Shown in pieces: positions 47,890 through 64,000 of a DNA stretch of 64,000 bases. The notes under the pieces were generated by a model, which was not told the DNA's origin, ran no database searches, and saw only the letters and a list, made by a program, of their open reading frames with translations. The stretch covers positions 704,001 through 768,000 of the forward strand of contig CAVQNG010000003.1 in assembly GCA_963713825.1 (NCBI GenBank), read 5' to 3'. Position numbers and translations under genes: made by a program. The DNA is from an uncultured Acidobacteriota bacterium. GTDB lineage: Bacteria > Acidobacteriota > Thermoanaerobaculia > Multivoradales > JAHEKO01. Within the stretch, counting starts at the first letter, position 1; the number at the start of each line of letters is the position of its first letter.

Positions 47890-48198
47890 GCTCCCCGACC
47901 TCGAGACCTATCTGACCGCGCTCTAGGCCCGCACTCTCGGAACGCGACTCGAACGGATACGTCTGACCAGCCCTTTTCTCCGGCGCCTTGGAAAGCGGCT
48001 CGTTTTCGACCTTGACGAGGACCTCTTCTTGGTCCTGCACCTCATGATCGCCGGGCGACTCCGCTGGAAGTCACTCGGTACAGCACCTCCCCAGAAGAGT
48101 GGCTTGGCCTCCTTCTGGCCGACCGGGTGCTGTCGCGGCTACTCGAGCAGGGCTGGCCAAAGAGTCTCGACGAGCTCGAACAGCTGAACAATCGTTGA
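47882..48198 (+). pseudogene. Collapsed Fpg/Nei family DNA glycosylase pseudogene
   Basis: MPELPDLETYLTAL* (TAG 47924), then in frame RRLGKRLVF...LHLMIAGRLRW; C-terminal LADRVLSRLLEQGWPKSLDELE in another frame; only 317 bp remain. Confidence 0.85.
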
Positions 48199-48276
48199 CT
48201 CTTGTGCACCTCGCGAGGTTCTCCCGGCCAAGTGCAGGGGTGGTGCGATTGCTTACCGCGCATTAAGATCTTCCTG

Positions 48277-48534
48277 ATGACAGCATCACCCCGAGGAATG
48301 CTCCCCGCTCTGATTGCCCGCTTCGCCGGTAGCTTGCGCTTTCCCCAACTCTTCCTGTTCACGGGTGCGCTTTTCTTCCTCGATCTAATCATTCCCGACC
48401 TGATTCCCTTCGCCGACGAGGTGCTACTCGGTCTCATCACCTTGCTTTTCGGCATGTGGCGCAAGAACGAACCTCCCTCGGTCGCCACCCCGGGCGACAA
48501 ACCGCCCATGAAGGACGTCACTCCCCAGGACTGA
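48277..48534 (+). CDS. Small membrane protein (DUF6116/YkvA-like)
   Basis: LRFPQLF...DLIIPDLIPFADE motif. Confidence 0.78.
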   Translation: MTASPRGMLPALIARFAGSLRFPQLFLFTGALFFLDLIIPDLIPFADEVLLGLITLLFGMWRKNEPPSVATPGDKPPMKDVTPQD

Positions 48535-48539
48535 CGTCC

Positions 48540-48930
48540 TGGGGTTGAGGCGCCGTCGTACCTCCGGCTGGTCTTTGAGGGCTTGGAGGTTAGACCGGCC
48601 GGCACTTCATGCCGGCCGGCCTTTGGGGGCTTGGGACCCGGGTCTTGAGCAGGGAACCGATATCTCGTAGAGGTTCGTTCGGGTGGTTCGAAAGGGGTGC
48701 CACGTCGAGCGCAGCGCCAGGGCCATCAGAAAAGCGGTGACAGGCACCTCATTCCACAACGCCATGGGAGCGCTCTCCGTCGAGCGCAGCGCCAGGGCCA
48801 TCAGTAAATGACCGGTGCGGGCGGGAGGGGGCCCACTGCACAAAGGTCAGCCTGAGGCACGAGGGTCTGGTTCATCCCCCAAGCCCTCAAAGACCGGTCG
48901 GGCATAGCCCGGACCGCCTCAGCCCTCAAG
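48540..48930 (+). repeat. Modular palindromic intergenic element, copy 2
   Basis: Two tandem GGTTGAGG...CTTTGAGGGCTTGG units on the left and one inverted unit at 48878-48925; core module 48671-48690; perfect 27-bp direct repeat at 48703-48729 and 48778-48804. Confidence 0.85.
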
Positions 48931-48943
48931 CCCTGGGTCCTTG

Positions 48944-50518
48944 TCAGGCGGTTCGCAAGAACTGCCAAGGCAAGGGACCCTGGGGCGACCGAAAGACGAG
49001 CGGGTCGATCTGGGTCCGGAACTCGCGCAGCAGGTTCGCGGTCGTCGCTCCCTGGGCTGCCTTCTCGAGAGCCGCAGCCGCCGTATGGTCCGCCTTGCTC
49101 AGGAAAGCCTGCCAAATCGCCTGTCGCACCGACATGGTCCCGAGGCTGACGTTGTCGAGAGTAGCTACACCACGATTCAGCAGCGAGATCTTCTGTTTCA
49201 GGGAATCCCGAGATTCCATGTTCTCCCGTTGGTACCCCGTGTAGGGCTTCGGGATCAGGATATTGACTCCCAGGTGAATCTGGCCGATGACGCCGGTCGG
49301 AGCGAGCTCTTCGAGCATGATGGCGCGACACTGTGCCGCCACATCGAGAATCGCCCGTACATCTTCATCGGTCTCCTCGGGCAGGCCGATGATGAAGTAG
49401 AGCTTCAGCCCTGTGAAACCTTGACGGAAGATCAATCGCACCTTGTCGAAGAGCACCGCGTTGGGGATCGGCTTGTTCAGCTTGACTCTCAACTCGTCGC
49501 TGCCGGTCTCTGGAGCCAGGGTGATGGAGCGGCCTCCCGAAGCGTGCAGTGCCTCGAGGACCCCAGGGGTAACGGCCGGGATTCGGACCGAAGAGACCGC
49601 ACTGCGAAATCCCATCTCCCCGGCCTGGCGCAGGATGCGCTCGATCCCGGGATGATCCCCCACCGCCGTGGCGACGAAGCCAAGCTGGTCGGTAACTGGC
49701 CGAGCCCTCTCCAAAGAGCCTAGGATCGCCTCCGTCGGGTGCCATCGGAAGCGACCCATTCCAAAGGTCGCCCAGCAGTAGCGGCACTTCTCGGGACAGC
49801 CTCGCGACATCTCGATCAGAAACTTGTTGCTGAACTCGGTCGCCGGCGTGACGATGGCAGTCGTCGGCAGGTTGCCGGGTAACCGCATCTGCTCTTCGGA
49901 CAGCTCCAGCTTCTTGAGCTTGGTTACGGGTACCTCGCCTACTGGAAATGCAGCCGGAACATAGAATCCGTCGGCGCTCGACAATCTCTCCAGAACCGCA
50001 TCACGGGCCGGCTCCTCGGCCAGTGCCGGTAGAAGCGCCGGCAGCAGGTTCTCCGCCGCACCCAGCGCAAAGACGTCGACGAACTGGCTCAACGTCAGGG
50101 GATTGATCATGGCGCAGGAGCCACCGACAACGATGACAGGGTCTCCCGGCCCTCGGTCCTGCCGGCGCAAGGCGATGCCAGCCCGACCCAGCATCTGCAG
50201 CAGATGGACGTAGTCCTCTTCGAAGGAGATGGAGAAGGCGATGGTTCCAAAGCTGTTGAGCGGGGTGGCTGCTTCCACCGACAGAGGCATCCCGGTGCCG
50301 TCGGCAAAGAAGCGCTCACAGCTCCACTCGGGGGTCCTGTGGATGAGCTCGAAGACCCGCTGAAAGGCGAGGCTCGACATACCGATGTGGTAGCTGTTGG
50401 CGTAGGCCAGCGCCATTGTGTAGCGGCTGTGGTGCGAGACTGGCAGTACCGGTCGCTCCAGACTGCGGGTCTCAGCCCAGTACCGCCGGGAGCCAGGATC
50501 TGGGGTTTTGCCCTTCAT
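48944..50518 (-). CDS. Radical SAM protein with N-terminal B12-binding-like region
   Basis: SRGCPEKCRYC, TLAPETGS and LYFIIGLP motifs; YANSYHIGMSSL. Confidence 0.88.
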   Translation of the reverse strand: MKGKTPDPGSRRYWAETRSLERPVLPVSHHSRYTMALAYANSYHIGMSSLAFQRVFELIHRTPEWSCERFFADGTGMPLSVEAATPLNSFGTIAFSISFEEDYVHLLQMLGRAGIALRRQDRGPGDPVIVVGGSCAMINPLTLSQFVDVFALGAAENLLPALLPALAEEPARDAVLERLSSADGFYVPAAFPVGEVPVTKLKKLELSEEQMRLPGNLPTTAIVTPATEFSNKFLIEMSRGCPEKCRYCWATFGMGRFRWHPTEAILGSLERARPVTDQLGFVATAVGDHPGIERILRQAGEMGFRSAVSSVRIPAVTPGVLEALHASGGRSITLAPETGSDELRVKLNKPIPNAVLFDKVRLIFRQGFTGLKLYFIIGLPEETDEDVRAILDVAAQCRAIMLEELAPTGVIGQIHLGVNILIPKPYTGYQRENMESRDSLKQKISLLNRGVATLDNVSLGTMSVRQAIWQAFLSKADHTAAAALEKAAQGATTANLLREFRTQIDPLVFRSPQGPLPWQFLRTA

Positions 50519-50654
50519 GACTTCACCTGGGGCATCTTCCTGTCGAAGACGATCAGGGAAGGGGCCGTGCGGCTCGAAGGAGCATGGTCGGGTGAGGCCG
50601 CAGAGGCGGAAGGCCCCTTTCTCGATCGGTTCACGAGTCGGGTACGACGACAGG

Positions 50655-51830
50655 TTATCGCAGGTAGATCCTGGGGACCCGGCTCGTGATGGTCGAGACG
50701 ACCTCGTAGTTGATGGTGTCGAGCGTTGTTGCCATCTCGTCCGCGGTGAGCACCTCGTCGCCTTGCCGGCCGAGGATCACCACCTCATCGCCTTCGGTTG
50801 CCCCGGGGACCTCTCCCACGTCGAGCAGGGTCAGGTCCATACAGATCCTGCCGACGATGGGAACCCGCTGGCCCTTGACGAGCATCTCGCCGCGGCAGGA
50901 CAGGCCTCGGTTCAGGCCATCCGCATAGCCCACTGCTACGGTGGCAAGGCGCGTGGGCCGGGGTGTCTCGTAGGTGATGCCATAGCTGACGCCGAAACCG
51001 GCTGGCACCTCCTTGAGCTGGATGATGCGGGCCTTCCACTCCATGACCGGTTTCAACTCGACACGGCTTTGATCGACCTCTGCCGATGGATAGAGCCCGT
51101 AGGTGGCGATTCCGGGTCTGACCATGTCCAGATGAGAGTCCGGCATGTCCAGGAGTGCTGCGCTGTTCGCAGCATGGCTCAACGAAAACTCGATACCCTC
51201 CTGCTTCAGGCGGCCCACCAACTCCTGGAAGCGCTTCAGCTGTCGGTTGGCATAGGTCTTGTCCGAACGGTCAGCAGTGGCGAAGTGCGTAAAGAGCCCC
51301 TCGGCCTCGAGACCGGGCAGACCAGTCACGCCTACGACTTCGCTGTACCGGTGGTGCGCAGCGCTGTCGGTTGCCTCTTCAACCCTTGGCTCATCCGTCA
51401 ACAAGCCGAGTCGGCCCATCCCGGTATCGACCTTGATGTGGACCCGGACTCGCTTGCCTCTCGAAGAGGCCTCCGCTGCCAGGGCCTCGGCCGTTTCCCG
51501 CGTGAAGACGGCCTGAGTCAAGTCGAGGTCCAGAAGGGTGTCGATCTCTTCGGCTGGCGTCAGTCCGAAGATCAGGATGGGGGCTTCAATCCCCGCCTCG
51601 CGAAGCTCGACGGCCTCATGAAGACGTGCCACACCAAGCCAATCCGCGCCAGCCTCGAGAGCCCCTTGCGACACGGCAATCGCACCGTGCCCATACCCGT
51701 TGGCCTTGACCACGGCCATGAACCTAGAATCCGGACGCGTGGCCCGGCGTAGCTCGGCGATGTTGTGGCGGTAGGCGGCGAGATCGATCTCGGCCCACGT
51801 CAGCGCTTCGGACAGGATCTCTTCTCCCAA
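50655..51830 (-). CDS. alr: Alanine racemase
   Basis: AVVKANGYGHG, KVDTGMGRLG, VSYG, GYADG, GRICMD and TINYE motifs. Confidence 0.95.
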   Translation of the reverse strand: MGEEILSEALTWAEIDLAAYRHNIAELRRATRPDSRFMAVVKANGYGHGAIAVSQGALEAGADWLGVARLHEAVELREAGIEAPILIFGLTPAEEIDTLLDLDLTQAVFTRETAEALAAEASSRGKRVRVHIKVDTGMGRLGLLTDEPRVEEATDSAAHHRYSEVVGVTGLPGLEAEGLFTHFATADRSDKTYANRQLKRFQELVGRLKQEGIEFSLSHAANSAALLDMPDSHLDMVRPGIATYGLYPSAEVDQSRVELKPVMEWKARIIQLKEVPAGFGVSYGITYETPRPTRLATVAVGYADGLNRGLSCRGEMLVKGQRVPIVGRICMDLTLLDVGEVPGATEGDEVVILGRQGDEVLTADEMATTLDTINYEVVSTITSRVPRIYLR

Positions 51831-51868
51831 GAAAATCGGCTCCCCCGGGATTATCCCCGGAGGAGCCG
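51829..51868 (-). terminator. Intrinsic terminator after the TonB receptor gene
   Basis: 13-bp stem at 51837-51868 (one G-U pair on the minus strand) followed by AUUUUCUU. Confidence 0.7.
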
Positions 51869-51896
51869 GAAGAGTGAAACAAGTGTACTCAGCTAA

Positions 51897-54785
51897 CTAG
51901 AACTCGAACCCGACAGCCAGCTGCAGTCGGCGTGGATTGAAGAAATCTCTCGGCTCGCCGAACCTGGCACTGTTGACCTTGTTCTGGATGTTGTACCCGG
52001 TCTGGTTGTCGAAGAGGTTGAAGAGATCGGCGGTCAGCCTGATGCGGTATCGACTGCCGAAGTTGAAGAACTGGGTGTAGTTCAAGTCCAGCTGGTAATG
52101 CTCGTCGGTGCGGCGAGACCCGGCTGGCTCGGCGTAACGACTGGTGTCGCTGGTGCTGCCGGTGTACTGCGATGCGATGGCCCGGTAGTCCCAGGCCTCC
52201 CAGGGCTGTCCGTCCTGATAGACAAAGAATCCACCAGTGGTCGCATTCCAGGGCAGGTTGTAGTAACCGAAGACCTTGAACTGGTTGCGCCGATCGCCAC
52301 GCAGGTAGCCATAGCGGTTGTTCCAGAGCTGGCGCCCGGCCCAGTCGGCGATGAAGGACGAGCCGACGAAGATGTTCCCATCGTTCGAGGTCGTCGTGTT
52401 GTCCTGGTCGAAGTTGCCGTAGTACTGACTCCAGGTATACCCCGCTTGCGCGTACCACTTGGCGCTGCGGTACTCGGCCTCGAGGGCGACCTCGTAGTAG
52501 TCGGTAAAGGCATCGTCCAACTGCGCGATGACGTAGGACGAGCCACCGATCTCATCCCGGATGTCATCCAGGTAGGGGATGTAGAGCTCCCGGGGGATGC
52601 CCGCCGGCGGTTCGAGGATGACCCTGTCATCGTTGGCGGTGTCCTCCCAGAAGTTCTTCCCCTTGCGGTAGCGGAAGTGGCTGCGGGCGACCATTCGGCT
52701 CGAGACCTGCCGATCGTAGCCGACCAAGAACTCGTCGATGTAGCGGGGATCCAAGTCGTCGTCGAACCACTTACCCGAAGAGGATCGTACCGGGTCGGTC
52801 GCCAGATAGTCGCCGTTCGCATCGAACTGGATGTCGATCTGGCGTTGCAGGTTGCGATCCCACGAAGCGGCTCTGGGCAGTGAGCTGGCAGCCGGGTTGT
52901 AGCGCGCGTAGCTGGCATAGGCCTTGTCCCTGCCATTCCAGCTCCAGGTGGCACCCAGACGGGGCTGGATCATCTCGCCGAAGCCGATCTTGTACATCTC
53001 GTACTCGTTGCCCGGCGCGTTCTCGAACCCGGAGACACCCTGGCCCGTGTAGCTCAGACCCGAACCGAAATAGGTGTCCTCGGAAAAGAGGAAACCCACA
53101 TTGAAAGTCCAGTTCTTCATCGTGAAGGTATCGTTGATCTCGATGCCCTGGGACTCCATCGAGGAGACGATCTTGGGTACCGACTCCGCCAGGCTCTGTT
53201 GCCAGACGCGGGCCTCGTAGAAGACCGGAGTGCCGTCGGGGAGCTCATCTCGTCCGCCCGTGAATTCAATCTCACCCCAGCCGTTGGAGACTCGTAGCAG
53301 TTCTTCCGAGACGTCGTACATTTGATAGCCGATATGTAGCTGATGCCGGCTTAGAAGGTAGTCGTAGCCGATCGAGAAATCGGTACGGAAGAAATCGATG
53401 CCGTCGATGGTCCCGTCGACGCCGACTTGACCACCACCCCGCGGGACTCCGTCCTCGTTGTAACCGTACTGCTGGATGATCGGTGCGGCCAACAGATTGA
53501 AGGCGGGATCGCCGTCGAGGAAGTTGGGAACGTAGAACTGACCCTGGGTATCCAGGGCCGAGACGTTGATACTCCTGCCTGGACCGATGTCGAGGTTCAG
53601 GAGATTGTCGGGCGTCGTCGAGCCCTTGTTCGCCCAATCGGTGAACTTGAAATTGAGCGAGCTCCTGTCGTTGATGAGCCAGGTCCCTTCGATATAGCCA
53701 GTTTCCTGTGTCGAATCGTCGCCTACCGAGGTGGTCCCTGCACAGGTGTCACAGACACTCTGGCCCTGGGCGTCGGTCTCCGCATCCCTGTAGCTGCCGG
53801 AGAAGAGTAGGCTGGAAGTCGGCGTGAAGGTCAACTTGCCGAAAAACTCGTCCCTGACACTTTCCTCGCCTGGGACTTGGCCATAGAGGTTGACGCGATT
53901 GCTCTGTTCCACCGTCGGCCGATAGTACGAGCCGTAGAAGAAGATCTTGTCCTTCCACAGGGGGCCACCGATGCCGAGCGTCAGCCAATCCTTGTCCTCA
54001 TCGAAAGTCTCGTCAGACTCCTCGGTGACATCGCTGGTCATGTTGGCACCCTGGTATTGGTAGTTCACCAGGCCGCGCCAGGCGTTGGTGCCGGAGCGGG
54101 TGACCGAGTTGACGGTCAAGCCACCCGAGCGGTTGAAATCCACGGCTTTGACGCCGCCGCGGATGAAGGAGACCTGCTCGATGTCGTAGGCGGCCGGCTC
54201 CGTGGTCAGCGAACCGAACAGTGGCAAACCAACATCGACGCCATCGATCTTGTAGACGTTGTCCTGCCCGCTACCGCCGGCGCTGGGTCCACGGATGGTG
54301 TCCTCGGTGTACTGGACGCCCGGGGCCAACTTCAGGAAGTCCCGATACTCCTGGCCCACCGGCAGGGCATCGATGGTCTGGTCAGAGATAGCAGACTGAA
54401 TCGTCGGCGTGGTGAGGTCCAGGCTCTCGGTTGCCGCCACCACTTCGATGACATCTTCGACCGAGGCAGAGGTCATCGTGACGTTGACCACGGTGTTCTT
54501 CTCCAGGAGCACCTCCAGGGAGTACTTCTGGGTGGCCATGCCATCCATTTCGAACGTTAGCTCGTAGTTGCCAGGGGGGAGAAATGGGAATCGATAGAGA
54601 CCTGTTCCCTCGCTGACAACGATACGCGGCTGCGGCAAGACATCGCCGCTCGCGGTGACGGTGACACCCGGCAAGTCCGTGCCGTCGTCCATGGTGATGG
54701 TTCCGGATACGGTACCGGTCTCCTGGGCGAAGGCCGGGACGCAGAGTACCCCGACAGCCAGGAGAATGAATAGATAACGTCTCAT
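51897..54785 (-). CDS. TonB-dependent receptor (Oar-like, N-terminal carboxypeptidase-regulatory-like domain)
   Basis: Signal peptide, LPGVTVT, LPPGNY, plug region APGV, C-terminal PRRLQLAVGFEF; RBS before ATG at 54785. Confidence 0.92.
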   Translation of the reverse strand: MRRYLFILLAVGVLCVPAFAQETGTVSGTITMDDGTDLPGVTVTASGDVLPQPRIVVSEGTGLYRFPFLPPGNYELTFEMDGMATQKYSLEVLLEKNTVVNVTMTSASVEDVIEVVAATESLDLTTPTIQSAISDQTIDALPVGQEYRDFLKLAPGVQYTEDTIRGPSAGGSGQDNVYKIDGVDVGLPLFGSLTTEPAAYDIEQVSFIRGGVKAVDFNRSGGLTVNSVTRSGTNAWRGLVNYQYQGANMTSDVTEESDETFDEDKDWLTLGIGGPLWKDKIFFYGSYYRPTVEQSNRVNLYGQVPGEESVRDEFFGKLTFTPTSSLLFSGSYRDAETDAQGQSVCDTCAGTTSVGDDSTQETGYIEGTWLINDRSSLNFKFTDWANKGSTTPDNLLNLDIGPGRSINVSALDTQGQFYVPNFLDGDPAFNLLAAPIIQQYGYNEDGVPRGGGQVGVDGTIDGIDFFRTDFSIGYDYLLSRHQLHIGYQMYDVSEELLRVSNGWGEIEFTGGRDELPDGTPVFYEARVWQQSLAESVPKIVSSMESQGIEINDTFTMKNWTFNVGFLFSEDTYFGSGLSYTGQGVSGFENAPGNEYEMYKIGFGEMIQPRLGATWSWNGRDKAYASYARYNPAASSLPRAASWDRNLQRQIDIQFDANGDYLATDPVRSSSGKWFDDDLDPRYIDEFLVGYDRQVSSRMVARSHFRYRKGKNFWEDTANDDRVILEPPAGIPRELYIPYLDDIRDEIGGSSYVIAQLDDAFTDYYEVALEAEYRSAKWYAQAGYTWSQYYGNFDQDNTTTSNDGNIFVGSSFIADWAGRQLWNNRYGYLRGDRRNQFKVFGYYNLPWNATTGGFFVYQDGQPWEAWDYRAIASQYTGSTSDTSRYAEPAGSRRTDEHYQLDLNYTQFFNFGSRYRIRLTADLFNLFDNQTGYNIQNKVNSARFGEPRDFFNPRRLQLAVGFEF

Positions 54786-54915
54786 CTTGTTCCCCCTTCT
54801 TGGGTTGGTGAGGGCCTTGAAGTCGGCAAGACTGCGAATCGTCATACGACCAGATCTCATCTGATTCCAGGGGTCGGCCGGCGCGAGGACGGCCCCGAAT
54901 TGTGCAAGCATTTTC

Positions 54916-54944
54916 AACTTAGCATACGGAATTTCCACTTGCAA
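54916..54944 (-). promoter_or_regulatory. Putative sigma70 promoter of the TonB receptor in an AT-rich patch
   Basis: TTGCAA-17 nt-TAAGTT with a TGn extension on the minus strand. Confidence 0.45.
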
Positions 54945-55889
54945 TTATTGACTTCTCTCCAAATTTCTAAAGTTCGTCAGAGCTTTTCGAACATGGCCAC
55001 GGGCGGCGCTGAGGCGCTTTCGCGCCTCGTCAGACGAGATCCGGCAGCGCGCCATGACAATGGCGGTCTTGACCTCTCCATCTGCCGCGCGAATCAGGCG
55101 ATCAGCCTCCTGGCGCGAAACCTGTCCTGCACTCTCTACGATACGCACGGCTCGGTCCTGGAGTTTCGCGGAGCCCGGACGTAGATCCACCATCAGGTTC
55201 TCGTAGGCCTTGCCCGCGCGCACCATGGCCGCCGTGGTGATGGCATTGAGAACCGCCTTGGTGGCCGATCCCGCCTTGAGCCGGGTGGAACCGGTGAGAA
55301 TCTCCGGTCCGGTCTCGAGGGCGATGACCAGGTCGGCCTGGTCTTCCAGGCCTTCTGCGGCGGCGCATGTGACGAGAATCGTCCGCGCTCCCTGCTGCCG
55401 AGCTTGCGCCAGTGCACCGCGAGCGTACGGCGTCACCGAGCTCGCCGACAGGCCCACCAGGAGGTCGCCCGGGCCCAGATCGTCGACCGCAGTCTGGCCG
55501 TCGTCGAAGCGATCTTCCGCTCCTTCCTGGGCTCTGAAGACCGCCATCTGTCCACCTGCCATGATGGCGCGAATTCTCTCGGGATCGGTACCGAAGGTCG
55601 GCGGGCACTCCGCCGCCTCCAGGATGCCCAGCCGGCCACTTGTGCCTGCGCCGGCGAAGACCAGGTCGCCTCCAGCCTCCAGAGCCTCGGCAACCCAATC
55701 GGCTGCCTGGGCAATCTTTTCGCACTGCACCAGGGCCGCCTCGATCCCCGTGCGGTCCTCCTCGAGCAGGAGCAAGACGACTTCCTGACTCGACAGGGTG
55801 TCGAGCTCGGTGCTCTTGGGGTGACGACCCTCCGTCAGGAGAGTCTGCCAACTGTCGTGTGCGAGGCTCGGATCGGTAGGGTCGGTCAC
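54945..55889 (-). CDS. murQ: N-acetylmuramic acid 6-phosphate etherase
   Basis: LLTE, GAGTSGRLG..AAECPPTFG, EGAED, TGPEILTGSTRLKAG and NLMVD motifs. Confidence 0.95.
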   Translation of the reverse strand: MTDPTDPSLAHDSWQTLLTEGRHPKSTELDTLSSQEVVLLLLEEDRTGIEAALVQCEKIAQAADWVAEALEAGGDLVFAGAGTSGRLGILEAAECPPTFGTDPERIRAIMAGGQMAVFRAQEGAEDRFDDGQTAVDDLGPGDLLVGLSASSVTPYARGALAQARQQGARTILVTCAAAEGLEDQADLVIALETGPEILTGSTRLKAGSATKAVLNAITTAAMVRAGKAYENLMVDLRPGSAKLQDRAVRIVESAGQVSRQEADRLIRAADGEVKTAIVMARCRISSDEARKRLSAARGHVRKALTNFRNLERSQ

Positions 55890-56017
55890 GATTGCCTACC
55901 CGAGTAGAGACGCTTCGTAAGCATTGGGATATTGTTCCGGAACGACGTCGGGCGGGCAAGCGACGTTGCCCTCTCGGGTTGACGCAATCACCTCTCGAGC
56001 CGGCTCACCAACCCATC

Positions 56018-57202
56018 GTGATCACCAACCCGACAGCGATCTTCGTCTATCTGACCTGCCTTCTGGGTGGCATCTTCTGGCTCAGCGGACTGCCCCGACT
56101 GAAGCGCCTCTTCAGTCTGACGCCGGCCGTCGTCTACGCCTACTTCCTGCCAGCGTTGAGCACGAGCTTCGGGGTCCTTCCTTCGAGCTCGACCACCTAC
56201 GACTGGATGGTGCGCTATCTGCTGCCGGTGAGCCTCATGCTCCTGATGACCACCGTCGACGTCAAGGCCATCCTGCGGCTCGGTGGCAAGGCGCTCATCA
56301 TGATGTTGGCGGGCTCGGTCGGGATCATTGTCGGTGGGCCGATTGCCTACGGCCTTCTGGGGCGCTCTCTACCACCCGATACCTGGATGGGGTTGGCGGC
56401 TCTGTCCGGAAGTTGGATCGGCGGCGCCCCCAACATGGTGGCCATCAAGGAAAGCGTCGGCACTCCCGATTCGGTCATGGCCCCGATCATCGTCGTCGAC
56501 ACCGTGGTGGCCTACAGCTGGATGGGCCTGCTGCTCTTCATGACCGCTTGGCAGCAGCGCTTCAACGACTGGGTCAAGGCGGACACCTCCGCGATCGACG
56601 CGTTGAACCAGAAATTGGCCATGACCGACCGTCAGCGACGACCTGCCGAGGTGCGACATCTGGCCATGATCCTGGCCCTTGGGTTCGGTGGAGCTGTCCT
56701 GGCGATCTGGGCTGGCGATCACCTGCCAGCGCTAGGCGACCCGACGATCATCAGCCATACGACCTGGTCAGTGGTCCTGGTGACCACCATGGGGCTCGCG
56801 CTGTCCTTCACCCCGGTCTCATCGGTCGAGACCTTCGGCGCCTCGCGGGTGGGCTACCTGGCGCTCTATCTGATGCTTACTGCCATCGGTGCCCAGGCCG
56901 ATCTCAAGAAGGTTCTGGAGGTGCCGCTGTACCTGGCGGTCGGTGTCTTGTGGATCTCCATCCACATTGCGGTTCTGATTTTGGTGGCCAAGCTCATTCG
57001 GGCGCCGCTGTTCTTCGTGGCCACCGGCAGCATGGCCAACATCGGTGGCCCGGTCTCGGCCCCGGTGGTGGCCTCGGTCTTTCACCCGGCGCTGGCTCCC
57101 GTGGGGGTTCTCATGGGCGTCACAGGGTACATAATAGGCATCTACGGCAGCCTTCTGTGCGCCTGGCTGCTGTCGCTCGTAGCAACCGCTTTGGGCTTCT
57201 AA
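56018..57202 (+). CDS. DUF819 family multi-pass membrane protein (putative transporter)
   Basis: LSGSWIGGAPNMVA and SMANIGGPVSAP motifs; about 11-12 TM helices; start uncertain. Confidence 0.85.
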   Translation: MITNPTAIFVYLTCLLGGIFWLSGLPRLKRLFSLTPAVVYAYFLPALSTSFGVLPSSSTTYDWMVRYLLPVSLMLLMTTVDVKAILRLGGKALIMMLAGSVGIIVGGPIAYGLLGRSLPPDTWMGLAALSGSWIGGAPNMVAIKESVGTPDSVMAPIIVVDTVVAYSWMGLLLFMTAWQQRFNDWVKADTSAIDALNQKLAMTDRQRRPAEVRHLAMILALGFGGAVLAIWAGDHLPALGDPTIISHTTWSVVLVTTMGLALSFTPVSSVETFGASRVGYLALYLMLTAIGAQADLKKVLEVPLYLAVGVLWISIHIAVLILVAKLIRAPLFFVATGSMANIGGPVSAPVVASVFHPALAPVGVLMGVTGYIIGIYGSLLCAWLLSLVATALGF

Positions 57203-57230
57203 TTCAGCTCTTCAAAAGAGGGTAAGGACA

Positions 57231-58232
57231 ATGACGATTCGCGTGATGCACGTGGGTTTGGGACCGATTGGAGTCGGAGTCTTGAAACAGGTCATGGAAA
57301 GGCCAGGATTCGAGGTCGCCACCGCGGTGGACATCGACCCAGAAAAGGCTGGCAAAGACGTCGGTGAGATTCTGGATCTCGAAGACAAGACCGGTGTCGT
57401 GGTGCAGAGCGACCTCAAAGGCGCTCTTGCAAGCCATGACGCAGATGTCGTGGCCCTTTGCACCGGTTCGACCCTGCCTGGAATCAGATCCCAGCTCGCA
57501 GCGATCCTGGCGGCAAGGCTGCCTGTCGTCTCGACGACCGAGGAGCTCTCCTTCCCGCAGTTTTCAAACGAGACACTCGCTGCGGAGATCGACGAGATGG
57601 CCCGGGAGGCAGGAGTGGCCGTTGTCGGTACCGGTGTCAATCCGGGCTTCGCCATGGACACCCTACCCGTCGTCCTGAGCGCCGCCTGCGAGCGTGTGGA
57701 CTCGGTGACCGTGGACCGGATCCAAGACGCCAGCAGTCGCCGGCTTCCCTTTCAGAGGAAGATCGGGGCCGGGCTCGAGCCGGACGACTTCCGCCAGAAG
57801 GCGGATCGCCTCGAGATCCGACACGTCGGGCTGACCGAGTCCATCGCCATGATCGCCGCCGCCTTCGGATGGGAGCTCGATCGAATCACCGACGTCATCG
57901 AGCCCAAGATCGCCGACGAGCCGGTGGCCAGCAACTTCCTCTCGGTCGAACGGGGACAGGTCGCCGGCCTGATTCAAGACGGAGTCGGGTTCCGGAATGG
58001 AGAGCCGATCATCCGGCTCCATATGGAGGCCTACCTGGGGGCTCCCGAATCCTACGATGCGGTGCGCATCGAGGGTTCGCCAGCGCTGTACTCGAAGATC
58101 GACGGAGGCATTCCAGGGGACATCGCCACGGCCTCGGTGACCGTCAACACCCTGCCCCGAGCCCTGGCGGCCCCACCAGGCCTCCACACCATGAGGGATC
58201 TTCCGATCCCCTCCTGGTGGTCAGGGGCCTAG
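57231..58232 (+). CDS. DapB-N / 2,4-diaminopentanoate dehydrogenase (Ord)-like NAD(P)-dependent dehydrogenase
   Basis: GLGPIG, STTEEL, GTGVNPGFAMD, RHVGLTES and GDIATAS motifs. Confidence 0.85.
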   Translation: MTIRVMHVGLGPIGVGVLKQVMERPGFEVATAVDIDPEKAGKDVGEILDLEDKTGVVVQSDLKGALASHDADVVALCTGSTLPGIRSQLAAILAARLPVVSTTEELSFPQFSNETLAAEIDEMAREAGVAVVGTGVNPGFAMDTLPVVLSAACERVDSVTVDRIQDASSRRLPFQRKIGAGLEPDDFRQKADRLEIRHVGLTESIAMIAAAFGWELDRITDVIEPKIADEPVASNFLSVERGQVAGLIQDGVGFRNGEPIIRLHMEAYLGAPESYDAVRIEGSPALYSKIDGGIPGDIATASVTVNTLPRALAAPPGLHTMRDLPIPSWWSGA

Positions 58233-58249
58233 ACGGATGGTCTGGGCCC

Positions 58250-58590
58250 CTGGGGTGGAGGCGTCCGGTCGTACCTCCCGGCTGATCTCTGGGGGCTTGA
58301 GGTTGAGGAGCCCGTCGTTCCTCCGGTCAGCCTTTGAGGGCTTGGGACCTGAGGCCTGGACCACCCCACCCATCCCGGCCGGCAGGGGCGCCGGCCGCTT
58401 CAAGAACTCACGCTTCAGTCTTGCCCCCTTACATCCCTATGCCCTTGAGCCCTCTAGCGGTGCTGAGAGGTTCGTTCGAGTGGTTCGCAGGCGGAAGGGC
58501 CTCTACGAGACATCGGTCCCATACCCAGGACCCAGGTCCCAAGCCCTCAAAGATCGTCCGGCGGCGAGCCGGACGCCTCAACTCCAGGAC
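58250..58590 (+). repeat. Modular palindromic intergenic element, copy 3
   Basis: Two tandem units at 58252-58346, core module 58468-58487, inverted unit 58538-58585; 58500-58540 is the inverted homolog of 48633-48673. Confidence 0.85.
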
Positions 58591-58610
58591 GGGTGGGCGG
58601 GGGGATGGGC

Positions 58611-59840
58611 TCAGCCGAAGAAGAAGTAAGTCACCAGAATGGCGGCGATGGCGCCGGCCAGGTCGGCGGCCAGGCCACAACCGACTGCGTGGCGGGTGTT
58701 GCGGATGCCCACCGAGCCGAAATAGACCGCCAGGACATAGAAGGTCGTCTCGGTGCTGCCCTGGACGACGCTCACCAATCGGCCGGCGAACGAGTCCGGG
58801 CCCATGGCCGTCATCGTCTCCAGCATCATGCCGCGCGCACCGCTACCCGACAGGGGTCGCATGAGGATGGTCGGCAAACCATCCACCCAGCGGGAGTCGA
58901 CACCGATCCCTTCGACTCCCCATCGGACGCCGGCAAGAAGCCAGTCGAGCGCCCCACTGGCCCGAAAGACCCCGATCGCCACGAGCATGGCCACCAGATA
59001 GGGGATGATGCCTACCGCCACTTTGAAGCCATCCTTGGCGCCCTCCACGAAGGTCTCGTAGAGCGGCACCCGGCGACGGGCCGCCAGGAAAAGAAATGTG
59101 ATGATGACCCCGAAGATCGCCAAGTTGGAAATCAGCGACGACTGGCGCTCCATGACCTCGCGTGGAAGGCGGGAAAAGTAGAAGACCAACGAGCCGACCG
59201 CTGCGGTCATCGCTCCCAGGTAGGCCATCACCACCGGATCCAACAGCCGCAGCTTCTGCACCGCAGCCGTGACCACCAGGCCAGCCATCGTCGAGCAGAA
59301 GGTCGCGATGATCAGGGGAATGAAGACATCCGTCGGGTCGGCCGCTCCGAGCTGTGCCCGGTAGACGAAGATCGTGATCGGGATCAAGGTCACTGCCGAG
59401 GTGTTGATCACCAGGAAGAGAATCTGGTCGTTGGTGGCGGTGTCCTTGTCGGGGTTGAGCTCCTGGAGCTCTCCCATGGCTTTGAGGCCCAAGGGAGTCG
59501 CCGCATTGTCCAGGCCCAACATATTGGCGGCCATGTTCATGACGATCGAGCCCATCGCCGGATGACCTTCGGGGATGTCCGGAAACAGCCGGCGCAGCAG
59601 CGGGCCGAAGGCCTTGGCCAGAAGGTCGACCGCCCCCCCCTTCTCCCCCAGCTTCATGATCCCCAGCCAGAGGCACATGACACCGGTCAGCCCCAGGGCG
59701 ATCTCGAAACCCGTCTTGGCCATGTCGAAAGCCGCGGTGACCATCGCCGCCCAGACTTCGTATTCACCCTGCAGTAACCAACGGCCCATGGCCACAAGGA
59801 AGGCCACGAAGAAGAAGCTGCCCCAGATCTTGTTGAGCAT
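58611..59840 (-). CDS. SpmA/SpmB fusion (nucleoside-recognition Gate domain) membrane protein
   Basis: MLNKIW, ANMLGLDNAATPLGLKAM, RPLSGSG and GSTETTFYVLAVYFG motifs. Confidence 0.92.
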   Translation of the reverse strand: MLNKIWGSFFFVAFLVAMGRWLLQGEYEVWAAMVTAAFDMAKTGFEIALGLTGVMCLWLGIMKLGEKGGAVDLLAKAFGPLLRRLFPDIPEGHPAMGSIVMNMAANMLGLDNAATPLGLKAMGELQELNPDKDTATNDQILFLVINTSAVTLIPITIFVYRAQLGAADPTDVFIPLIIATFCSTMAGLVVTAAVQKLRLLDPVVMAYLGAMTAAVGSLVFYFSRLPREVMERQSSLISNLAIFGVIITFLFLAARRRVPLYETFVEGAKDGFKVAVGIIPYLVAMLVAIGVFRASGALDWLLAGVRWGVEGIGVDSRWVDGLPTILMRPLSGSGARGMMLETMTAMGPDSFAGRLVSVVQGSTETTFYVLAVYFGSVGIRNTRHAVGCGLAADLAGAIAAILVTYFFFG

Positions 59841-59858
59841 CGGTTCTCGCCTACCCGC

Positions 59859-61079
59859 TCATCGGCCGAGCACACTCAGTGCGTTGAGTACCTGCACTGC
59901 GGCGCCATAGGCCATGCATTCTTCGTCTACGTCGAAGCTTGCCTGGTGCACAGTCGCGACGATTCCTGCCGACTCGTTGCGCACGCCGAGGACGAAGAAG
60001 GCACCTGGCACGTGGCTCAAGTAGTAAGCGAAGTCCTCGACCCCCATGTTGGGTGTGGGAAAGACGAAGACGTTCTCCTCGCCGACCAGGTCGCGCGCAT
60101 TCTCACGGACCACGTCTACCATTCGATTGTCGTTGATCAGCGGGTCATAGCTCGGCTCGATGTCCACCTCGGCCCGTCCTCCCATAGCCGCAGCCACTCC
60201 TTCCGCCGTCTCGCGCACCCGCCGCACGACGAGCTCGCGGATCGCTGGATCCAGACATCGCACCGTGCCGACGAGTCCCACGCGGTCGGCCAGGATATTG
60301 CCCTGGCTGCCGCCCTGGATCTTGCCGAAGCTGACTACGGCGCTGTCCCGCGCATCCACATTGCGACTCACCACCGTCTGCAGAGCCGTGACGACCTGGG
60401 CCGCGACGACGATCGCATCGACTCCGCCTGCCGGGTAGGCACCATGGCCCGAACGGCCATGAACGATGATGTCCACGTTGTCGGAGGAGGCATTCCTCTG
60501 ACCGTAGTGCAGTCCGAACGTTCCCACCTCGTGACTGCCATCGACATGCAATCCGAAGATGGCATCCACCGCCGGACTCTCCAGCACCCCCTCTTCGATC
60601 AGCAGCTTGGCTCCACCCACCGTTTCCTCGGCCGGCTGGAAGATGAGCTTCGCTGTGCCGGGCAACGCGTCGGCCATCCCAGAGAGGAGGCGCGCCGCCC
60701 CGAGCAGAACCGCCATGTGAACGTCGTGACCACAGGCGTGCATCTTGCCCGGAACCTGCGACCGATAGGGCACATCCTTGGCGTCCTGCAGCGGCAGGGC
60801 GTCCATGTCCGCTCGCAACGCCACCACAGGACCTTCCGAGCTGCCGCGAATGGTCCCCAGCACCCCGGTGCCACCGAGGCCATCCACATGCTCGATGCCG
60901 AGCTCGTCGAGAAGGGCCTGTATGCGCCCCGCCGTGCGGTGCTCCTCGAGACCGAGCTCAGGGTGTCGATGGAAGTCGCGCCGGATCTCACTCATCCAGG
61001 GAAGGATTTCCCTCGCCGCAGACAACAGCTCCTGCGGCGAGGGAAATGCCTGCCTGGCTGGCCCTTGGGAGGCGGTCAT
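59859..61079 (-). CDS. M20D family amidohydrolase
   Basis: RRDFHRHPEL, LRADMDALP, MHACGHD, FQPAEE and EDFAYY motifs; ATG at 61079. Confidence 0.92.
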   Translation of the reverse strand: MTASQGPARQAFPSPQELLSAAREILPWMSEIRRDFHRHPELGLEEHRTAGRIQALLDELGIEHVDGLGGTGVLGTIRGSSEGPVVALRADMDALPLQDAKDVPYRSQVPGKMHACGHDVHMAVLLGAARLLSGMADALPGTAKLIFQPAEETVGGAKLLIEEGVLESPAVDAIFGLHVDGSHEVGTFGLHYGQRNASSDNVDIIVHGRSGHGAYPAGGVDAIVVAAQVVTALQTVVSRNVDARDSAVVSFGKIQGGSQGNILADRVGLVGTVRCLDPAIRELVVRRVRETAEGVAAAMGGRAEVDIEPSYDPLINDNRMVDVVRENARDLVGEENVFVFPTPNMGVEDFAYYLSHVPGAFFVLGVRNESAGIVATVHQASFDVDEECMAYGAAVQVLNALSVLGR

Positions 61080-61213
61080 GGCCGGCAGCGTACCACGACA
61101 GATTTGCCGTCCGGGCACCCTTTCATGGTCCTGTTGCCTGTCCTTGGCAGGGCTGCGAGAATCAGCCCGTTCGACGAATCCGCTTATCGAAGTCCCACCC
61201 TTTGGGAGTGACA

Positions 61214-62308
61214 ATGCTCTTGGCGAAACGTGCTGTCTCTTGGATCGCAATTGTCTTGTTCGCCGGCACCATCTCTGGCTGCCGTTCGACTGGAACAGTC
61301 ACGGTCCCATCGACTTCTCCCCCGGGTGGGCTATCCATGATCTGGCCCGACAGCCTGCGGCCCGGCGACACCATCATGTTCGTGGCTCCAGCAGGAGATC
61401 TGGCAACAGATCTGAGAGAAGAGAGAATCCTACTGGCCAAGAGTCGGCTAGAAGCGCGCGGCTACAAGGTCGAGATGCGCAAGGACCTGTTCGATAAGGA
61501 GGGCTACCTAGCGGGCACCGACAAGCGACGCGCCAAGGAACTCATGCAAGCGTTCCTCGACCCCAACGTCAAGGCAATCTTCTCGGGACGGGGTGGTTAC
61601 GGCACCATGCGGATTCTCGACCGACTGGACTACAAGAAGATCCGAGCGAATCCCAAGATTCTCGTTGGGTTCTCCGACATCACGGGGCTACATCTGGCGC
61701 TCAACCGTCAGGCCGGCCTCGTCACGTTCCACTCGCCGACCTCCTTCTGGCGATTGGACAACGAAACCGAGGGCATGAGGCCCTTCACCCAGGAGTACCT
61801 GCTGCGCGCAGTGATCGACGACGGAGCTGCGACCAACGATGGCTACACGATCGAGATTCCCGAAGACGCCCCTCGACCGGTCGCCCTCGGTAGGGGTACG
61901 GCCCGAGGCAGACTGGCCGGCGGCAATCTGTCGATGATCTCGGCGCTCGAAGGCACGCCCTTCTCTGTCGACACACGCGACGCGATCCTGCTCCTCGAAG
62001 ACACTCGTGAAGCACCCTATCGGATCGACCGCATGCTGAAGCAGCTCGAGCTCGCCGGCAAGCTCGAGACCCTGCGGGGCGCCGTGCTCGGTCAATTCAC
62101 CCGCAACTACGACCGGGAAGAGGATCAGATGACCGAGGATCCCCGCTTTACGGTGGACGGGGTGCTGCGCCAGTACTTCGAGCCTCTCGGGATCCCTGTT
62201 CTGATGAATTACCCTGTCGGACACAGTCCCTACAACGCCACACTGCCACTCGGCGCCCAGGTCGAGATCGACGCCGACCAGGGCACGCTCCGCATCCTGC
62301 CGCACTAG
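61214..62308 (+). CDS. ldcA: LD-carboxypeptidase (S66, LdcA/MccF family), predicted lipoprotein
   Basis: RGGYG, GFSDIT, GGNL, LLED and VGH triad motifs; lipobox-like ISGC after a hydrophobic stretch; GGGAG RBS. Confidence 0.88.
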   Translation: MLLAKRAVSWIAIVLFAGTISGCRSTGTVTVPSTSPPGGLSMIWPDSLRPGDTIMFVAPAGDLATDLREERILLAKSRLEARGYKVEMRKDLFDKEGYLAGTDKRRAKELMQAFLDPNVKAIFSGRGGYGTMRILDRLDYKKIRANPKILVGFSDITGLHLALNRQAGLVTFHSPTSFWRLDNETEGMRPFTQEYLLRAVIDDGAATNDGYTIEIPEDAPRPVALGRGTARGRLAGGNLSMISALEGTPFSVDTRDAILLLEDTREAPYRIDRMLKQLELAGKLETLRGAVLGQFTRNYDREEDQMTEDPRFTVDGVLRQYFEPLGIPVLMNYPVGHSPYNATLPLGAQVEIDADQGTLRILPH

Positions 62309-62618
62309 CCAGGGTTGAGGCGGCCGTCGTTCCTCCCGGCCGATCTTTGAGGGCTTGGGGGTTGAATCGTCCGTCGCTTGCTCCGGCCGACCTTTGAGGC
62401 CGTGGGGGCCCCCCTCCCATTCCTCTAGACCCCTGGGCCCTTACGCCCCTACTGCCCTAAGCCCCTATTGCCTTCAACGGTGCCAGAGGTTCGTTCGGGT
62501 GGCTCGCCTGTGGGGTGCCGAGTCGAGCGCAGCGCAAGGGCCATCGCAGAGCACAACAGAGGAGGCGCGATGACGAGACAAGGTGGCGGCCCACCTCAAT
62601 GTAGGGGAGGGGCTTCCC

Positions 62619-63916
62619 TGTACGTTCTCACGACATAGGTAACACTCGTGTATCAGGACATCGGTAACACCTGAGGCAAGCTAGTGCCTTTAGTAGAGGA
62701 GGTGCTGGATGCCTTGGAAGGAGACCGATGTGGCGGGAGAGCGGATCGAGTTTGTGGTGCGGGCGTTGGGTGAGTCGGGTAGTTTCAGTGCCTTGTGTCG
62801 GGAGTTTGGGGTCTCTCGCAAGACGGGCTACAAGTGGCTACGGCGCTTCGAGGAGGTGGGCAGCGTGTCACGACTGGCGGAGCGCTCGCGACGGCCGCAT
62901 CACAGCCCAGGCAAGACCCCTGAGGCCCTTGAGCTGCGGGTCGCGGCCTTGCGACAGCGCTATGGCTGGGGTAGCAAGAAGCTGCAGTGCTTGCTGGCCG
63001 AGGAAGGGCTCCATCTGCCGCGGATCACGATCGATCGGATCCTGAAGCGTCGGGGCCTGGTGAGCCGCGAGCGAGCGGCGAAGCCGGCCCTGCAGCGCTT
63101 CGAGCGCTCCCAGCCCAACGAGCTCTGGCAGATGGACTTCAAGGGTGAGTATCGCCGCGGCGGGCGCCCCTGGATCTATCCCCTGAGTCTCCTGGACGAT
63201 CACAGCCGCTACTGTCTAGGGCTGTATGCCCTGAGACATCCCGATCACGACAGCGTGAAAGGCCAATTGGTACGGACCTTTGAGCGCTATGGGGTACCTG
63301 AAGCCATACTGGTCGATCACGGCACACCCTGGTGGTCTCCGGCCAATGGTCATGGCTTGACTCGCCTGAGCGTCTTTCTGGTCCGACAGGACATCCGTCT
63401 GATCTACAGCGGAATCGGTCATCCACAGACCCAGGGCAAGGTAGAGCGGTTTCATCGCACCCTGGGCGAGAGTGTGGGACGAGAGGACAAGCTCTCGAGT
63501 GTCGCGTCCTATCAGAGCCGATTTGACCGCTTTCGCCAGGAGTACAACGAGATCCGGCCCCACGAGGCGCTCGGCATGGAGCGCCCCGCAAAGCGCTACC
63601 GGCCCAGCCGTCAGCCGTACCGGCCCGAGCCATCTGAGTGGGTGTACCCACCAGGTGGTGAGGTGCGGCGGCTGAGTGCGGCCGGAGTCTTGAGCTGGGT
63701 CGGGAGACCCTACTTTGTCTGTGAGGCGCTAGCCCGGTAACCTGTCTGGTGCCGGTGCTACGGGAAACGTCTACTGGTCACCTACCGGAATCTGCAGATC
63801 CGGGATATTGACCTCGACTCAGGTCGGACCACCGCGGTGGTCCGACCTGTGGGAGACTGAAGAAGTGTTACCCATGTGGTGATACACAACCGTTACCTAT
63901 GTCCTGACACAGAACA
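62619..63916 (+). mobile_element. IS481 family insertion sequence (1298 bp)
   Basis: TGT...ACA ends; 52-bp imperfect TIRs, each with two TCAxxACATxGGTAAC subrepeats; no target duplication seen. Confidence 0.92.
62709..63860 (+). pseudogene. IS481 transposase with an in-frame TAA at 63738-63740
   Basis: MPWKE, GVSRKTGYKW, WQMDFKG, LDDHSRY and PQTQGKVERFH motifs; the frame continues 39 sense codons past the TAA to TGA 63860, next to the right TIR. Confidence 0.8.
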
Positions 63917-64000
63917 CGCAAGGGGCTCCCCTACAAAGCCGACGCCGTCCCCCTGCGGACCACCCGGACGGGCCTCAACGAGATCGCGGCTATTTGCCGG

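Follow-up and report, generated by a model that had tools for sequence, protein, structure and literature searches.

In Escherichia coli, MpaA, Mpl, LdcA, YcjG and PepD have their roles in murein-peptide recycling, and the abgA-abgB-abgT genes encode M20D hydrolases together with an AbgT-family carrier for an N-acyl-glutamate-like anion; the SusC/SusD-type polysaccharide utilization loci (PULs) of Bacteroidota combine genes for an outer-membrane barrel and exported glycoside hydrolases with those for an inner-membrane carrier and for catabolism in the cytoplasm. According to primary reports, NagZ, AmiE and NamZ digest peptidoglycan sequentially from the non-reducing end in Bacillus subtilis (PMC8054146), and Tannerella forsythia is a diderm living on the wall of other bacteria (PMC7670621, PMC10465942). 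Further reports place spmA and spmB downstream of dacB in B. subtilis (PMC13188902) and describe yjiHG-iadA as one transcription unit in E. coli (PMC6469107), and two other sources give no biochemical function on record for SpmA/B or YjiG (PMC3533761, PMC13311989). Here, we describe a locus from the Thermoanaerobaculia (Acidobacteriota, as placed by the best named relative; genome G000, completeness 96%) in which a fused SpmA/SpmB protein, hereafter Gate, is encoded close to murQ. The window (the whole stretch of DNA that was analyzed, 64,000 nucleotides) contains the left third of this locus for the salvage of peptidoglycan (murein) fragments, a function that we regard as very probable.

Extent and conservation of the locus

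All eight genes that a first-pass annotation had named as a candidate peptidoglycan-scavenging locus were recovered at their coordinates with Pfam and NCBIfam profiles. The minus strand carries alr, encoding alanine racemase (50655-51830; TIGR00492, 394 bits vs. an NCBIfam cut-off of 168), the gene of an Oar-like outer-membrane barrel (51897-54785; Pfam CarboxypepD_reg and OMP_b-brl_4, signal peptide by eye) and murQ, encoding the etherase of N-acetylmuramic acid (MurNAc) 6-phosphate (54945-55889; TIGR00274 305.8 vs. 302, NF003915 347.8 vs. 168, SIS-type Pfam domains). Across a divergent intergenic region (55890-56017, delimited by a start-codon survey), the presumed promoter site, where no site for a regulator was recognized, there follow on the plus strand the gene of a DUF819 membrane protein (56018-57202; frame open from 55892, likely GTG start at 56018; PF05684, 303.3 bits over profile positions 3-377 of 379) and that of an Ord/AmDH4-like NAD(P) amine dehydrogenase with a DAP_DH_C domain (57231-58232). 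Gate (58611-59840, minus strand) is a single fused open reading frame (ORF) of 409 residues with two PF07670 stretches (76.8 bits); it lies behind the gene of an M20D amidohydrolase without signal peptide (likely limits 59859-61079, minus strand; TIGR01891 382.7 vs. 153.75, M20_dimer), with which it would be co-transcribed. The eighth gene (likely limits 61214-62308, plus strand) encodes an S66 LD-carboxypeptidase (Peptidase_S66 and S66C domains; PF02016 137.6 bits, PF17676 125.6), which by its N-terminus (by eye) is lipoprotein-type rather than cytoplasmic and scores below the E. coli LdcA equivalog (NF008424, 163 vs. 378).

The locus spans about 36 kb, is split by an insertion sequence of the IS481 family and runs past the window to about G000:C3:788833. 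Beyond the insertion, the genes encode, in this order, an exported class-A-beta-lactamase-like lipoprotein (L041:1990-3213(-), Beta-lactamase2; its 3' end occupies 63990-64000 of the window, minus strand), LysA, an AmpH-like PF00144 protein, an Amidohydro_3 lipoprotein, an M14 peptidase, a NagZ-AmiE-NamZ fusion, an SSF symporter, NagB, a BadF-type kinase, an MR_MLE enzyme, a sulfatase/TPR protein, a leaderless S66 protein (21 kb downstream of the lipoprotein S66) and an Amidase_2 lipoprotein. Exported and cytoplasmic proteins sort cleanly by N-terminus (by eye). The PUL-like layout proposed in the first-pass annotation is supported, with a barrel and exported enzymes for trimming, carriers in the inner membrane and catabolism in the cytoplasm; the locus extends further than could be seen from the window.

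Conservation of this gene set was assessed in an order sample of 41 genomes (G000 included; the count for one genus depends on an unpublished genome, G006). While murQ is present in 13/41 genomes and Gate in 11/41, all 11 Gate genomes have murQ, the murQ-only genomes being G027 and one from the genus of G000 that is 70% complete. In 8 of the 11 Gate genomes, a single contig carries both genes at a distance of no more than 10 kb, and in the remaining three they are on separate contigs, each flanked by other locus genes; the neighborhood statistics that had been suggested for SpmAB and murQ are therefore borne out at the order level. The locus gene set is conserved across at least six genera in three families of the order. 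The genes of LysA, PF00144, the class-A-like hydrolase, Amidohydro_3, M14, the NagZ fusion, SSF, the kinase, MR_MLE and sulfatase/TPR recur in other genera, in shuffled order, in eight genomes (G011, G022, G023, G027, G033, G036, G006, G035). In 9/11 Gate genomes, the M20D gene immediately precedes Gate in the same orientation, and the barrel gene adjoins murQ in 8/13 murQ genomes from six genera; of the other five, three stop at a contig edge and two contain no barrel gene inside 40 kb. Gene content, export signals as judged by eye and conservation of the gene set across genera are direct observations.

Two kinds of mobile or repetitive DNA interrupt the locus. The IS481-family insertion (62600-63935, plus strand; transposase 62709-63740, NF033577 241.5 vs. 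224) has 71-nt imperfect terminal inverted repeats and is a late insertion splitting the locus: it is absent from the site in two genomes of the same genus (G003, G004), where the flanking genes stand side by side, and in contigs from three sequencing runs 62592 is connected directly to 63937. Two more copies (62% identity) occur elsewhere on contig C3. A repeat resembling a miniature inverted-repeat transposable element (MITE), with inverted and direct repeats and inverted ends, occupies the 380 bp that separate the dehydrogenase gene from Gate (58249-58588), and a second copy lies behind S66 (62313-62507); DNA-run depth peaks at these repeats, and contig joints link the first copy to 62.4 kb and both copies to about 63976. 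A 130-residue ORF (58237-58629) was rejected as a gene since it sits in the first copy. An Rfam scan of 48000-64000, the murQ/DUF819 intergenic region included, gave no match, and a promoter scan gave site counts not above those of shuffles. With regard to occurrence, half or more of the sampled words occur in 19 of the 24 listed sequencing runs, and these 19 are without exception labelled sediment or salt-marsh metagenomes; contigs from one metatranscriptome library cover alr, murQ, Gate and M20, contigs alone showing neither transcription nor levels.

Predicted route of wall fragments

Taken together, the parts suggest a salvage route that, in its full form, we consider somewhat more probable than not, judging from family membership and gene neighborhood. 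At the outer membrane, the Oar-like barrel, a candidate TonB-dependent transporter for wall fragments, would admit the fragments. In the barrel protein, about 120 residues separate CarboxypepD_reg from the start of the barrel model, and a hydrophobic VIEVV-type stretch after CarboxypepD_reg may be a TonB box. Next to the barrel gene, a sulfatase-domain/TPR gene is conserved (L042:50-1753; relatives in G033, G011, G027, G079, G095, G109 and G006); the G000 copy may be truncated or frameshifted, since its ORF begins at sulfatase profile position 87.

In the periplasm, the NagZ-AmiE-NamZ fusion would strip N-acetylglucosamine (GlcNAc), stem peptide and MurNAc from glycan ends. This secreted protein of about 1342 residues (L041:9543-13571 = G000:C3:775543-779571) combines a GH3 (NagZ) domain, a beta-lactamase fold (AmiE-like) and NamZ_N/C. 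Among 8000 candidates scored, 3175 proteins are related to it at E <= 1e-30. The three-part architecture is shared by most of the best 120; Thermoanaerobaculia, Acidobacteriota, Kofleriaceae and Luteimonas are among the source names, and none is named for the function. MurNAc would then enter via the SSF symporter, be phosphorylated by the BadF-type kinase and be converted by MurQ to GlcNAc-6-P, with NagB acting later. This kinase, of the MurK type, is the sole BadF/BadG-type kinase of the genome and the predicted source of MurNAc-6-P. For the sugar, the SSF symporter, which adjoins the kinase and NagB genes, is the more likely entry route, displacing the import via DUF819 and/or SpmAB that had been proposed. 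A search of the whole genome found no AnmK, no AmpG and no EIIC of the phosphotransferase system (PTS). The earlier statement that ampG, mpp/opp and murP are missing from the window is thus extended to the genome for AmpG and PTS EIIC, while a sole family-5 binding protein is encoded on another contig.

Peptide trimming, with release of D-Ala, would fall to the AmiD-like amidase (the Amidase_2 lipoprotein), the AmpH-like PF00144 and class-A-beta-lactamase-like exported hydrolases, the M14 peptidase, and the D-aminoacylase-like and S66 lipoproteins. The Amidohydro_3 lipoprotein matches the D-aminoacylase-type subfamily PRK09061. The M14 peptidase is exported, and the stop codon of its gene (L041:7888-9543(+)) overlaps the NagZ fusion start. 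Over about 400 residues, the peptidase shows homology to the Gate-adjoining M14 of a metagenome locus (L258, 38% identity) and also to the M14 encoded beside Amidase_2 and DUF819 in L078 (35% identity). Two apparent conserved unknown genes here, unk171 and unk151, were rejected as shadow frames of the M14 gene; such conserved-looking shadow frames are a warning for ORF calling in high-GC DNA.

Stem peptides would be imported via Gate and cleaved by the M20D enzyme encoded just upstream, in the manner of MpaA; meso-diaminopimelate (mDAP) would pass to LysA (414.8 vs. a cut-off of 297.9), and L-Ala-D-Glu or N-acyl-D-Glu to the MR_MLE enzyme, which scores higher as DgcA (258.7) than as the L-Ala-D/L-Glu epimerase YcjG (180.3), both below cut-offs. 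DUF819 and the Ord-like dehydrogenase would serve an additional amine or amino-acid product, as an extension particular to this genus. A genome search gave no MpaA match in G000, which does encode an Mpl-like ligase. The genome also encodes MurB and DapF (a DapA-like gene stays below its cut-off), and auxotrophy for MurNAc or DAP was rejected because of these two.

Candidate carriers and competing explanations

The substrate of Gate is the point on which the peptide part of the route turns. The fused arrangement behind an M20 gene is unlike the two-gene sporulation arrangement behind dacB, and split forms occur in other Acidobacteriota. No solved structure is related to Gate in sequence; its AlphaFold model (predicted local distance difference test, pLDDT, 84.8; predicted template modelling score, pTM, 0.80) has 13 best structural matches, all of which are secondary carriers (ArsB, TRAP-QM, Pho90, INDY/DASS, DiT, AbgT-family YdaH, CNT), at Z 7.8-11.0 over 266-333 aligned residues, followed by a drop to Z 6.7 over 67 residues. 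From the model, Gate is a candidate elevator-type (IT-superfamily) anion carrier. As regards its partner, the nearest solved structures of M20D are ILL2, YxeP and an acyl-glutamine aminoacylase, as well as the AbgA/B-type 3io1. M20D belongs to another family than MpaA and M14 and resembles them in position; that it is an MpaA analogue, and thus a candidate murein-peptide amidase, is a tentative assignment to which we give slightly less than an even chance.

Outside the order, what the Gate family may transport is indicated most clearly by a metagenome contig of GC 0.69 with a tight operon (L228:9117-12709) of MpaA (245.6 vs. 157), Gate and an Mpl-like ligase (359.8, below the 388.7 cut-off and above its murC score), followed by PBP4. 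On another contig (L258), M14 precedes Gate, beside NlpC/P60-SH3 (YkfC-like), DUF819, MR_MLE, PBP4-like and AmpD-like genes. Because MpaA and M14 thus hold the position upstream of Gate in these two loci, and G000 has an Mpl-like ligase and no MpaA, a sequence of Gate importing stem peptides, M20D splitting them and mDAP passing to LysA is suggested. Further, in a phylum sample of 151 genomes, three family-f14 genomes have split SpmA/SpmB near LysA-like, Amidohydro_3, amino-acid permease and sulfatase/TPR genes (a barrel gene in 2/3), and split SpmA/SpmB is divergent from an S66 gene in G102. The earlier view of SpmAB as part of the locus holds in that Gate is a co-conserved core member found in murein-peptide operons on two unrelated metagenome contigs, but its tie weakens beyond the class. 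On balance, we give even odds to Gate carrying murein peptides. As a separate observation, the Gate gene of five metagenome loci with GC 0.47-0.56 (L237, L240, L256, L262, L263) is followed immediately, in the same orientation, by a MOP-flippase-like (Polysacc_synt) gene.

DUF819 proved to be an accessory carrier of the locus. The literature describes a CitS/GltS-like reentrant-helix fold for the family (PMC8396727) and an M15-peptidase/DUF819 pair in Neisseria meningitidis strains (PMC12671195). Orthologues at >= 65% identity are confined to this genus (g1) and G035, where the order is LysA, class-A-like hydrolase, S66, a 382-residue gene with a weak DUF5009 match only, and DUF819; the 17 other homologues in the order (<= 46% identity) have no locus partner inside 10 kb. 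Samples of 80 loci each were taken for DUF819 and Gate. Among the 79 non-genus DUF819 loci (named genomes), ten hold any locus-protein homologue, with wall-type examples in a Cyclobacteriaceae locus (L078; MR_MLE, M14 and Amidase_2 divergent from DUF819) and in L123 (murQ 6 kb away). By Pfam, about 12/54 DUF819 loci have a peptidase or penicillin-binding-fold hydrolase among nearest neighbors, and PF00144 is directly upstream in L057, L067 and L076. Since few loci show such neighbors, the link between DUF819 and wall peptides is recurrent but in the minority. The membership of DUF819 in a wall locus, as first proposed, and the neighborhood check suggested for it are accordingly not borne out beyond this genus and G035, and a wall-derived amino acid or peptide is a rather unlikely substrate. 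Two observations on the family stand by themselves: a housekeeping string of sirB, transglutaminase-like/TPR, DUF819 and kdsA in Shewanella, Thalassotalea, Neiella and Idiomarina (L077, L080, L085, L095, L099, L121), and a second DUF819 paralogue in G000 (G000:C3:134888-136057; 28% identity, one TGA inside the match), which adjoins purL/purQ-type genes there and in G009.

The Ord-like dehydrogenase gene is, judged by its recurrence, a true member of the locus: it is present there in 6/11 Gate genomes from four genera, e.g., after Gate in G011 (52%), beside murQ in G023 (43%) and two genes from Gate in G006 (57%). The substrate implied by the "diamino-acid dehydrogenase" of the first-pass annotation is not supported: the DAP_DH_C domain is there, but the score (NF040740, 271.3) is under the Ord cut-off of 400. 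The nearest solved structures are 7xdu, 6g1m and 6g1h, and no ornithine-fermentation partner (aminomutase, thiolase) is found among the annotated locus genes, to which this statement is limited.

Several points weigh against the salvage reading or against single steps of it. All transport and enzyme assignments are inferred from neighborhood and family. The fold matches of Gate lie below Z of about 13, the safe level for helical bundles, and Foldseek with the Gate model gave no match at E <= 0.001 (best 2.1e-3). In the barrel protein, no Plug domain (PF07715) was detected in residues 100-420 even at E 0.05, while of the proposed "TonB receptor" the barrel and its signal peptide are supported; its AlphaFold model is too poor to search with or to show a plug (pLDDT 45.7), and a PDB profile search gave no match. 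In the sugar arm, the best NagA match of the whole genome (TIGR00221, 27 bits vs. a cut-off of 225.65; 96% complete) leaves a gap between MurQ and NagB. An unrecognized GlcNAc-6-P deacetylase may exist in G000. Beyond the order, murQ is present in 53/151 genomes of the phylum sample and Gate in 22/151, with murQ in 11/22 Gate genomes vs. 42/129 without Gate; by these counts, the Gate-murQ tie is strong inside the class (8/8) and weak beyond it. Gate proteins 77% and 70% identical (G146, G098) have no locus partner inside 10 kb, and in the metagenome scan (80 Gate loci, 53-97% identity) any locus partner is held by 5/80 loci (tblastn), while 2/30 annotated loci have a murein-peptide context. 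For DUF819, a wall-specific neighbor is found in only 2/79 non-genus loci, and sirB stands beside it in six gammaproteobacterial loci, five of which have the string with kdsA.

By tblastn, alr and lysA are single copies in the genome and may be housekeeping genes. The membership of alr in the locus is doubtful: the gene belongs to it only in this genus and, in another position, in G033, where a 37%-identical alr ends an M20-Gate-alr string. Between alr and the barrel gene there is a terminator-like hairpin (51837-51868, minus strand; 14-pair stem, 11 GC pairs, T-rich tail), one of 9 terminator-like sites found in total vs. 6.5 +/- 3.1 in shuffles, i.e., no excess. Because both genes are sole copies and alr lies behind this hairpin, a catabolic label for them is unsafe; of the catabolism of D- and diamino acids that had been proposed, the alr part in particular is weakened, and lysA is likewise a sole copy. 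A B12-binding-type radical SAM gene after alr (window 48944-50518(-)) is 90% identical in the same genus and was unseen in the loci of other genera.

These points lead to other explanations of the gene set. The locus could recycle the turnover of its own wall, the barrel serving another substrate or minor scavenging. Besides the single-copy alr and lysA, the Mpl-like ligase (for direct tripeptide re-use), the leaderless LdcA, the AmpD/AmiD-type amidase and the presence of MurB and DapF in a cell that is no auxotroph would fit; and because alr and lysA are single copies and MurNAc and DAP are made by the cell itself, this explanation keeps some probability. However, the barrel gene adjoining murQ across six genera, the export of the exo-lytic fusion and five more hydrolases, and the lack of both AnmK and AmpG, marks of the classical anhydro-muropeptide route, all speak against it; we consider it rather unlikely, and the conserved barrel together with the exported exo-enzymes speaks for an external source of the fragments. 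Separate operons brought together by chance, without common function, would account for the four transcription directions in the window, the hairpin before alr and the gene order shuffled between genera, but about 15 families re-assemble in differing orders in the eight genomes named above, which makes this explanation very improbable. More general degradation of D-amino-acid or N-acylated necromass peptides, with M20, the D-aminoacylase-like protein, MR_MLE (as a DgcA-like N-acetyl-D-Glu racemase) and the Ord-like enzyme as a D-amino-acid route, would agree with the higher DgcA score of MR_MLE, the PRK09061 match and an action of M20D on N-acyl amino acids, as judged by the names of its nearest structures; still, MurQ, NamZ, NagZ, two S66 and Amidase_2 are wall-specific families co-conserved with the rest, and we hold this explanation to be improbable.

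A different question is whether Gate and DUF819 carry wall products at all. Gate could be a housekeeping carrier of another anion or envelope precursor, with peptides entering via an Opp-type or unrecognized carrier; indeed, one family-5 binding protein gene (SBP_bac_5, Opp-type) is found in the genome, on another contig, and its product could import peptides instead. In favor of this, Gate orthologues 55-73% identical across very different GC have neighbors such as MOP-flippase-like (5 metagenome loci), Wzy_C (2), LpxL-type (2), MiaB-like (3) and Ppx (3) genes, half of the Gate genomes of the phylum sample are without murQ, and DUF819 neighbors are mostly unrelated. Against it stand the M20-Gate adjacency throughout most of the order (9/11), M14 (L258) and MpaA (L228) at the place of M20, an Mpl-like gene following Gate in L228, S66 beside SpmA/SpmB in G102 and, according to the respective reports, spmA and spmB behind dacB in B. 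subtilis and the yjiHG-iadA transcription unit of E. coli (PMC13188902, PMC6469107). We regard a housekeeping Gate as an unlikely but serious contender. Peptidoglycan fragment salvage with peptide import via Gate is the explanation that we prefer. A wider proposal, which we advance tentatively and hold to be less probable than not, is that fused and split SpmA/SpmB Gate proteins form, next to AmpG and MppA/Opp, an as yet unrecognized third class of permeases for murein peptides, with DUF819 as a second carrier (D-Ala/mDAP). Such permeases would import L-Ala-gamma-D-Glu-mDAP(-D-Ala) or gamma-D-Glu-mDAP for the adjacent M20D, M14, MpaA or ligase Mpl. If true, this would explain the position of spmA and spmB after dacB in spore formers, and YjiG/YjiH would be predicted to carry iso-peptides.

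Significance and relation to known systems

In sediments, peptidoglycan constitutes a major pool of both bacterial necromass and D-amino acids, and its uptake by diderms outside Proteobacteria and Bacteroidota is poorly known; the locus provides a complete conserved parts list for one lineage, as well as a concrete testable function for the SpmA/SpmB family, a 30-year-old functional question. A term search of the text of a 2024 review of muropeptide transporters showed no mention of SpmA/B, YjiG, DUF819 or TonB-type uptake. Likewise, the full-text literature searched, which excludes most subscription journals, yielded no peptidoglycan-utilization locus with a TonB-dependent receptor and no link between spore maturation proteins and murein peptides.

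The layout resembles that of SusC/SusD PULs; unlike those, the barrel here is Oar-like, the substrate would be a glycopeptide, most genes are for the peptide part, and no SusD-like lipoprotein is found among the annotated window and continuation genes. As in E. coli abgA-abgB-abgT, an M20D protein (matching 3io1) is paired with a carrier whose model aligns to AbgT-family YdaH (4r0c, Z 9.2), but a sequence relation of Gate to AbgT was not detected. The nearest parallels to the Gate-M20D pair are dacB-spmA-spmB and yjiH-yjiG-iadA, in which Gate proteins are co-transcribed with a peptidase of unusual bonds (a D-Ala-D-Ala carboxypeptidase and an isoaspartyl dipeptidase); here, in contrast to dacB-spmA-spmB, SpmA and SpmB are fused, the host is non-sporulating and the partner is M20D.

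For the locus as a whole, the murQ-murR-murP-amiE-nagZ-namZ(ybbC) operon of B. subtilis (PMC8054146) shows the same combination of MurQ with exported NagZ, AmiE and NamZ. Unlike in that operon, the exo-enzymes form one polypeptide here, MurP/PTS EIIC is lacking, MurR is unseen among the annotated genes, and the diderm host carries an outer-membrane barrel gene and the locus a large peptide-handling arm. With the murT-murK-murQ and ampG cluster of T. forsythia (PMC7670621, PMC10465942), the locus shares a PTS-independent carrier, a MurK-type kinase, MurQ and the lack of AnmK; it differs in having no AmpG, an SSF protein as the carrier candidate (MurT being set apart, by description, as its own family) and MurB, thus no MurNAc auxotrophy. 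The E. coli set of MppA/OppBCDF, MpaA, Mpl, LdcA, YcjG and PepD (PMC10622912) is paralleled in stem-peptide import followed by Mpl-like re-ligation or by splitting and epimerization, whereas here M20D takes the place of MpaA and the proposed permease is a secondary carrier, Gate, not an ATP-binding cassette (ABC) system. Overall, the system is related to known peptidoglycan recycling and catabolic clusters and differs from them in gene content.

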